Program-made: the position numbers and the translations under genes
Notes under the pieces: model-generated
What the model was told of the DNA's origin: nothing
Database searches by the model: none
What the model saw: the letters and a program-made list of their open reading frames with translations, nothing else
Shown here: positions 26,886 to 27,695 of the stretch, piece after piece
Layout: every line of letters starts with the position of its first letter
Position numbering within the stretch: position 1 is the stretch's first letter
Virus genome (UHGV): UHGV-0133741
DNA: 64,000 nucleotides
Strand: one strand, 5' to 3'
DNA from: a virus

Positions 26886-27695
26886 TTATTTGCTAAGAGC
26901 AGCGAATAATCGTTCGAAATCGATAGTATCTATAGCACGCGTAAGAGCCGGAAGTTCAGCCTCAAAGTACCCGTGTCGATCGTAAAAGAAGGGGCCGAAG
27001 AGCGAGGCATGTTGGATTCTACTTCGCCCCAGCCCGGACACACAGTTAAGCCCATTACCGGCTAAAAGGCTAAAAAACTTCTCTGGATTATCGTGGTAAA
27101 GCAGGGAATCAATGGTGGCGGTTAATTCTTCCATAGGGAAGCACACCCGCCCTGTCTCCCAGGGATATTTAGTCCGAAGCATAAACATTGCTTTCAGCAA
27201 TTCACATTGAGCGCGGATCGCGTCCGGTTCATAGCCAGATATGGAGACATAAGCCACGTCCCTCATTCCTGCGTCATCTTTGAAAGTCACGATAGAAGTA
27301 ACATCCAGCTCTTTTTCGAAAGAGCAAGCAGCATCTACTGGACGCTGAAGTAAATCATTCGACTTAATGCGCTTGAGAATCCCTCCCCACATATCATTTA
27401 GATATTCGATATGAGCCAAAACCTTATCAAGACACTCTCGTGTAAACCATTCAGTATGCCCGCCACCGGCGCTTTTCTCCCACGGCGCATTCCAGGGGAA
27501 AAAGGTTGCGTGTAAAGCTCGCTCAAGATTAACCATTGCCAAACGCGTACCACGATAGACCCGTGAAAGCGCAAAATCGGGACTCACTTGTAGCCCTTTA
27601 AACCGTGCCAATGGACCACATGAAATGCCGATTTTAAAAGTATCTCCGTTCTCCGGCACCAGAACATAGAGGTAGTATTGTTTTTCTTCTTGCAT
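26886..27695 (-). CDS. T5orf172 / MUG113 (GIY-YIG-like) domain protein
   Basis: 269 aa; N-terminus YYLYVLVPENGDTFKIGISCGPLARFKGL...LERALHATF...GGGHTEWF fits the T5orf172 pattern; unknown C-terminal ~170 aa; start codon abuts the last incA iteron. Confidence 0.6.
   Translation of the reverse strand: MQEEKQYYLYVLVPENGDTFKIGISCGPLARFKGLQVSPDFALSRVYRGTRLAMVNLERALHATFFPWNAPWEKSAGGGHTEWFTRECLDKVLAHIEYLNDMWGGILKRIKSNDLLQRPVDAACSFEKELDVTSIVTFKDDAGMRDVAYVSISGYEPDAIRAQCELLKAMFMLRTKYPWETGRVCFPMEELTATIDSLLYHDNPEKFFSLLAGNGLNCVSGLGRSRIQHASLFGPFFYDRHGYFEAELPALTRAIDTIDFERLFAALSK

Follow-up and report, generated by a model that had tools for sequence, protein, structure and literature searches.

What role does a nuclease-like gene play when it is lodged between the replication iterons and the partition promoter of a phage-plasmid? 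Among the widespread vehicles of resistance genes in E. coli and Salmonella are the P1-like phage-plasmids, which are typed by two kinds of replicon, IncY and p0111. The DNA analyzed here, a 64,000-nucleotide stretch of the virus genome UHGV-0133741 (the window), is a P1-like phage-plasmid, and its p0111-type replicon holds such a gene, ORF269. On the minus strand, the order is oriR iterons, repA, seven iterons (27986-27726), ORF269, a terminator, Ppar, parA, and parB, with the following features.

24503-26717, minus strand: parA-parB operon (parA 26717-25521 and parB 25504-24503); protein identity to P1 of 99.7-100%
26772-26800, minus strand: Ppar, TGTACA-17-TATTAT, common to P1
26820-29069, minus strand: p0111-type replicon cassette (oriR iterons, repA, distal iterons, ORF269, and terminator), delimited by blastn against P1
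26854-26878, minus strand: intrinsic terminator just past ORF269, GCCCC-TGAAC-GGGGC (26878-26864) followed by a T run
26886-27695, minus strand: ORF269, 269 amino acids, ATG start, stop codon at 26886-26888; T5orf172/GIY-YIG-family protein
26889-27317, minus strand: C-terminal domain of ORF269 (residues 127-269), predicted Rep-WH1-like winged helix, putative targeting module
27318-27350, minus strand: linker of ORF269 (residues 116-126), pLDDT below 50 at 117-126 in the four-sequence AlphaFold2 model
27351-27695, minus strand: N-terminal nuclease domain of ORF269 (residues 1-115)
27726-27868, plus strand: five iterons with the core GTTGACTATGCGCGA, spacing ~31 bp, inverted relative to the oriR iterons (repeat families D5 and D6)
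27946-27986, minus strand: two iterons in the oriR orientation, directly past the repA stop codon (repeat family D2)
27988-28872, minus strand: repA, p0111 type, Rep_3 family, 42% identical to P1 RepA
28951-29057, minus strand: five oriR iterons, spacing 21-22 bp (repeat families D1 and D3)

Between the ATG of ORF269 and the closest iteron core there are ~30-33 nt, more than the few nucleotides given in the initial annotation. According to the ORF list, there is no second coding-strand ORF between the iterons and the terminator, and ORF269 stands alone there. The GC content of the gene (47.0%) is close to that of the window (47.1%).

The replicon cassette and its borders

ORF269 is a fixed component of the p0111 replicon cassette and not cargo unique to the window. 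At 95-99% identity, the cassette and its ORF269 recur in ~390 plasmids and in 12 phage records. The 1.3-kb stretch between Ppar and the repA end is 98-99% identical in 12 phage records, SJ46, RCS47, JL22, and phi456 among them, and in 388 PLSDB plasmids, nearly all from Escherichia or Salmonella, the match spans 80% or more of the query. In PLSDB, p0111 RepA and ORF269 occur at roughly 1:1 (~399 and 401 records), no p0111 replicon without ORF269 was seen, and the gene is present in one copy per genome. RefSeq names the product "GIY-YIG nuclease family protein", and the JL22 paper describes an unknown gene, corresponding to the ORF269 homologue, that was replaced together with repA. What had appeared to be unusual cargo is thus a constant and already annotated part of the p0111 cassette, and because it is annotated and widespread, its mere presence is not new. 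The new points are its confinement to one slot in three replicon types, its position at the edge of the cassette, the frequency with which it has decayed, and its predicted Rep-WH1-like second domain. No ORF269 homologue was found in plasmids of the RepFIB family, and no intermediate RepA relatives between ~84% and 49% identity were found in non-P1 plasmids. Of the P1-like element, plasmid pF1200-1 (OY842570.1), a 17-kb derivative, keeps only upfA-repA-ORF269-parA-parB-gp23, with IS629 and IS30 alongside; MOB-suite assigns its replicon to IncHI1B, apparently by mis-typing the p0111 RepA.

The window and P1 (IncY) have the same general plan, with five origin iterons, a Rep_3 RepA, distal iterons in two orientations, and then Ppar-parA-parB. 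Both have the par operon and the DnaA-box/GATC half of oriR in common, at 95-100%, whereas the RepAs are only 42% identical, the iterons are unrelated, and ORF269 and its terminator are absent from P1. In the blastn comparison, homology at 99% extends up to 26819 and resumes from 29070 onward, and between these two positions only 59 bp inside repA can be aligned. The differing segment (26820-29069) has a length of 2,250 bp versus 1,491 bp in P1, and the proteins flanking it are 94-100% identical to those of P1. The left border is situated ~20 bp upstream of the -35 element of Ppar and 66 bp from the ORF269 stop codon, and the right border (29069/29070) is situated inside oriR, between the iterons and the DnaA-box/GATC half, the latter being common to P1. 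In line with the initial annotation, P1 (NC_005856) carries no gene between incA copy 1 and the -35 element of Ppar. A tblastn search of this gap (word size 2, E up to 100) gave only noise and no ORF269 remnant; the gap is not a clean empty site for ORF269 and consists of ~190 bp of unique non-coding DNA.

Three further contigs, L003, L049, and L050 (Logan ERR2144811, SRR6505940, and SRR12532267, respectively), represent divergent P1-like lineages absent from PLSDB and INPHARED. The core proteins of L003 are ~80% identical to those of the window, and RepA is 84% identical, whereas its ORF269 homologue, P0004, is 44% identical with an intact reading frame. The tail sheath and gp23 of L003 are also ~80% identical to those of the window, and upfA is absent. 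L049 has an IncY-like RepA, 83% identical to that of P1, and carries an ORF269-family gene, and L050 has a third RepA type, 48% identical to that of the window and 41% to that of P1, with its own iterons. In L003 and L049, the par regions are nearly identical (ParA 99.7%, ParB 98%), and a 2.2-2.3-kb cassette that includes both repA and the ORF269 homologue differs, with borders of the same types as those between the window and P1; the right-border type recurs inside oriR at ~6830 in L003 and at ~4655 in L049. The ORF269-family gene marks the par-side edge of the swapped cassette, 66-84 bp from the border, in two independent backbone pairs, window/P1 and L003/L049. Since repA and the gene were swapped together in L003 and L049, the ORF269-family gene travels with the RepA/iteron set. 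P1, without ORF269, is the exception among the sampled replicon types.

The ORF269 protein and its relatives

The Pfam search bears out the proposed N-terminal domain of the 269-residue ORF, with residues 8-85 matching T5orf172 (PF10544) at 27.4 bits against a gathering cut-off of 20. The only other Pfam match, MUG113, is below its cut-off (15.2 against 22.3), and neither DUF4041 nor a transmembrane segment was found. The three other lineages of the family also match T5orf172, or do so weakly. In PHROGs, ORF269 belongs over its full length to its own family, phrog_2876, with the function listed as unknown, and the only other match is to the T5orf172 part of an "endonuclease" phrog. NCBIfam gave no match for ORF269.

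An exhaustive HMMER search of 1.84 billion representatives yielded 75 proteins. Besides fragments, P0004 alone (44% identity) aligns over the full length, and the others align only over residues 1 to ~120. P0004 is located between the repA-distal iterons and parA of L003, and the best N-domain-only matches, P0010 and P0011, are located in the same slot of L049 and L050. These four proteins align end to end, with N domains 33-62% identical and C domains 15-33% identical, and all four lineages, with three RepA/iteron types among them, have the ATG 21-33 nt past the last inverted iteron. A profile search of 5.8 billion clusters revealed no fifth lineage; in the searched databases, only four ORF269 lineages occur, all in one slot of P1-like elements. 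The farther N-domain relatives P0012-P0014 are found in unrelated contexts, indicating that only the four closest lineages occupy the rep-par slot. P0013, for example, is encoded on a chromosome (CP168302.1, locus L053, 5001-5876) between Mrr_cat/Zn-ribbon, WYL/WCX, and Hypoth_Ymh genes, in what looks like a defence island. The C-terminal regions of ~47 N-domain relatives form many unrelated groups, none of which resembles the C domain of ORF269.

The residues Y8, Y10, F20-K21, G23, R31, E58, H62, and T81-E82-W83-F84 are invariant in the four lineages. The motifs of the GIY-YIG superfamily are present in ORF269, including the first-strand Tyr, (F/Y)K(I/V)G, the Arg, and the putative catalytic Glu of TEWF. 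The motif residues are unchanged in 45 alleles, and no variable position touches a conserved motif. By way of the family motif, E82 may correspond to E180 of Odn or E414 of SNIPE.

AlphaFold2 gave a poor model with two sequences (pLDDT 55.9) and a better one with the four lineages (pLDDT 72.7), in which two domains, residues 1-115 and 127-269, are separated by a disordered linker at 117-126. The predicted N domain shows the alpha/beta fold of GIY-YIG proteins, in agreement with the initial annotation. A Foldseek search against viral models returned T5orf172 proteins, including ICP1 ORF88 (Odn) and CapR-domain endonucleases, and the fold of the N domain is therefore well supported. Against the PDB, the leading Foldseek matches were 6h24, RctB, and many RepE54 entries (best E 0.013, probability 0.98). 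The best PDB matches of the C domain are almost all Rep WH1, RepE, or RctB; the searches give no aligned ranges, and a helix-strand-helix-helix-strand-strand core at residues 157-229, with extra strands, suggests that the C domain is the matching part. We regard the WH1-like fold of the C domain as a prediction of moderate confidence. No sequence relation between the C domain and an alignment of P1-like RepAs was detected by hhalign (probability 0.2%), and a PDB sequence search using RepA gave nothing useful. The predicted arrangement of catalytic domain, disordered linker, and second domain would correspond to an I-TevI-like layout.

Constraint, decay, and expression

The comparison with the window covered 46 loci, drawn from IMG/VR, GTDB, and RCS47. 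The pN/pS of ORF269 is 0.31, similar in both domains, versus 0.02 for repA, 0.002 for parA, and 0.05 for parB. The corresponding pS values of repA, parA, and parB are 0.050, 0.040, and 0.061; the synonymous diversity of the cassette is not below that of parA and parB, and hence there is no sign of a recent sweep. A frame that remains intact in four lineages with C domains of 15-33% identity, together with a pN/pS of 0.31, shows selection on the ORF269 protein. The intact gene at 44% identity in a divergent P1-like element, the two farther syntenic relatives, and the same ratio argue that ORF269 is more than a chance ORF.

At least five independent inactivations of ORF269 were found in otherwise intact elements. 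The W68* allele is present in one locus (L042) and the S112* allele in five. The Q228* allele is present in L025/L056, that is, Salmonella phage SJ46 (NC_031129.1, 4324-5007), where RefSeq annotates a CDS of 684 nt for a hypothetical protein of 227 amino acids. In IMGVR_UViG_2645727563_000002 (5294-7058), the homologue is interrupted by an IS200/IS605-type element with ORFs for a 389-residue TnpB-like protein and a 141-residue Y1 transposase-like protein, which replaces nt 295-523. In vB_EcoM-673R5, two 1-bp deletions split the homologue into two annotated CDSs. Among protein clusters, a 168-residue form starting at M102 has 229 members versus 1,241 for the full-length form. ORF269 is thus under some purifying selection yet dispensable for plasmid maintenance, given these inactivations and a pN/pS of 0.31 against 0.002-0.05 in its neighbours. 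The earlier supposition that the gene cannot be lost without loss of replication or partition is contradicted by the inactivated alleles, including that of SJ46.

A scan of the interval from repA to ORF269 revealed no terminator and no sigma-70 consensus promoter on the ORF strand, and by eye there are only poor hexamers embedded in the iterons upstream of ORF269. Together with the strong terminator past the gene, this suggests that transcripts of ORF269 probably start at the repA promoter, which RepA autoregulates, and read through the iterons, in which case RepA occupancy would set the ORF269 level. The RepA-linked expression proposed at the outset is accordingly plausible, also in view of the 21-33-nt iteron spacing. 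Two sigma-70-like hexamer pairs are located in the iterons on the plus strand (27955-27982 and 29021-29049), antisense to repA; the region holds four promoter-like matches against 4.0 expected from shuffled sequence, and these pairs are therefore probably by-products of the iterons.

Candidate functions of ORF269

We favor, with a probability of roughly one half, the reading of ORF269 as a free-standing, homing-endonuclease-like and possibly iteron-guided selfish nuclease gene, which is the best fit among the three functions offered initially. The protein would be a two-domain DNA endonuclease, in which an N domain from the T5orf172 branch of the GIY-YIG superfamily is joined by a flexible linker to a fast-evolving, WH1-like C domain that may act as the targeting module. 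The 2.25-kb cassette, with ORF269 at its par-proximal end, is exchanged as a unit between P1-like backbones. When two P1-like genomes meet in one cell, ORF269 would cut the rival allele at incA-Ppar, and repair from the ORF269-bearing genome would co-convert the adjacent replicon; the gene itself is dispensable for maintenance and decaying in many copies. We rank this reading first because of the catalytic domain, the two-module plan, the site at the cassette border, the presence and absence of the gene, and a pattern of decay that matches T5orf172 models. Also in its favor are the predicted I-TevI-like layout and Rep-WH1-like C domain, the occurrence of all four lineages in one slot at 21-33 nt from the last iteron, and ICP1 Odn as a precedent. 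The gene shows presence and absence at one locus, as it is missing from P1 though the flanks are 99-100% identical, and this locus is at a recombination boundary. The relaxed constraint and the null alleles fit the post-fixation stage of the homing-gene cycle.

Free-standing T5orf172 homing endonuclease genes (HEGs) occur next to essential genes and where genetic exchange has its boundaries, and they degrade through frameshifts and deletions (Barth et al. 2023, PMC10448857). Like the ICP1 HEGs, the T4 Seg proteins, and I-TevI (PMC10448857), ORF269 combines a catalytic domain, a linker, and a targeting domain, the last being putative in ORF269. It also resembles HEGs in its intergenic position beside essential genes, in its presence or absence in close relatives, in its place at the edge of an exchanged segment, and in its nonsense, frameshift, and insertion alleles. 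However, CapR/DUF723/DUF4397 zinc-finger domains are present in 87% of the T5orf172 HEGs surveyed (PMC10448857), whereas ORF269 has no zinc-finger domain and no conserved Cys in its C domain. Furthermore, unlike HEGs, ORF269 is a single-copy gene, fixed in its replicon type and inherited syntenically over deep divergence, and it is situated in a plasmid maintenance region instead of a lytic-phage gene cluster. It also counts against homing that ORF269 is not sporadic within p0111, no empty p0111 site having been seen, that the cassette bears no sign of a recent sweep, and that hhalign relates the C domain to none of the P1-like RepAs. In addition, over 2.2 kb on its repA side the P1 allele lacks homology, which makes simple homing impossible; only co-conversion of the whole cassette would work.

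The retention of ORF269 over deep divergence, with an intact frame at 44% identity, could also reflect a host-beneficial function. It is somewhat unlikely that ORF269 is a lysogenic-conversion nuclease of this kind, serving defence or competition to the benefit of the host or element by cutting incoming phage or rival plasmid DNA, with the C domain as sensor or specificity module. Nucleases of the GIY-YIG/T5orf172 type act in defence in SNIPE/PD-lambda-1 (bioRxiv 10.1101/2025.11.03.685801) and in Odn against PLE. A conserved N domain joined to hypervariable C-terminal regions across 47 relatives, the position of the relative P0013 beside Mrr_cat, WYL, and Ymh genes, and a pN/pS below 1 with retention across deep divergence are consistent with such a role, and a place in the repA transcription unit would imply expression during lysogeny. 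However, the stand-alone defence effector suggested earlier found no support, as no PADLOC defence model matches ORF269 at E up to 1. SNIPE/PD-lambda-1 and ORF269 are alike in being single proteins with a GIY-YIG-type nuclease domain and a catalytic Glu (putative in ORF269), but SNIPE has an N-terminal transmembrane segment, DUF4041, and a C-terminal nuclease domain; ORF269 has neither the segment nor DUF4041 and is thus not SNIPE-like. Null alleles are also frequent, including in circulating viable phages, and ORF269 keeps strictly to a single slot in a single family of elements and not to defence islands.

We consider it unlikely that ORF269 acts as an iteron-guided "replicon drive" or incompatibility weapon, in which the Rep-WH1-like domain would dock on the iterons of a rival P1-like element or on the RepA bound there. 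The GIY-YIG domain would then cut just past the last iteron, and repair would replace the entire replication cassette of the rival. Such an action would explain why each RepA/iteron type has its own version of the gene, why the distance to the iterons is fixed, and why swaps occur at the same two borders.

In design, the nearest precedent for the homing-like, possibly iteron-guided reading is ICP1 Odn, in which a T5orf172 domain is joined to a RepA-derived domain; it cleaves an iteron origin, and it is active only with a Glu that was inferred by alignment to GIY-YIG proteins (PMC8263062). Odn (gp88; Barth et al. 2021) and ORF269 both combine a T5orf172 nuclease domain with a replication-initiator-related domain (predicted in ORF269), and both concern iteron replicons, with a specificity that co-varies with replicon type. 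Odn has its Rep-like domain, one of the RepA_N type, at the N terminus, with 42% sequence identity to the RepA of its target, whereas the putative Rep-like domain of ORF269 is C-terminal, of the Rep_3 WH1 type by predicted structure only, and without sequence resemblance to the RepA encoded next to it. The target of Odn is a foreign satellite, whereas ORF269 sits inside the replicon that it accompanies, and the activity demonstrated for Odn is a putative one for ORF269.

A role as a replicon accessory factor appears improbable. The C domain would pair with the RepA WH1 domain, which is the surface by which Rep dimerises, or bind the iterons, and so modulate initiation, handcuffing, or copy number; the nuclease domain would be vestigial or would introduce nicks in or close to the iterons. 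The predicted WH1-like fold, the change of gene type whenever the RepA/iteron type changes, the constant spacing past the last iteron, and the retention of ORF269 in the 17-kb mini-derivative all accord with this role, but the co-variation with RepA is also explained by simple physical linkage. Moreover, no homologue accompanies replication in P1 or in the wider RepFIB family, null alleles are common among plasmids that appear to be stable, and the fully conserved catalytic motifs argue against a purely structural role. Very improbable is an addiction or toxin module, as also suggested initially, or a remnant without function, preserved only by the selected sequences on either side of it: the nesting between iterons and Ppar, the relaxed constraint, and the pseudogenes would suit it, but the stretch from the iterons to the terminator has no neighbouring ORF of antitoxin size to serve as the partner of a toxin-antitoxin pair, and the frame is intact in four lineages with a pN/pS of 0.31.

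If ORF269 is merely a decaying selfish passenger, it would be useful as a marker of the cassette border and little more. If the homing-like, possibly iteron-guided reading is true, ORF269 would be a second, independently built combination of a T5orf172 nuclease with a replication-initiator-like targeting domain, after ICP1 Odn. If ORF269 promotes cassette exchange or displaces rivals, it would provide P1-like phage-plasmids with a mechanism for switching replicon and incompatibility on the same phage backbone.
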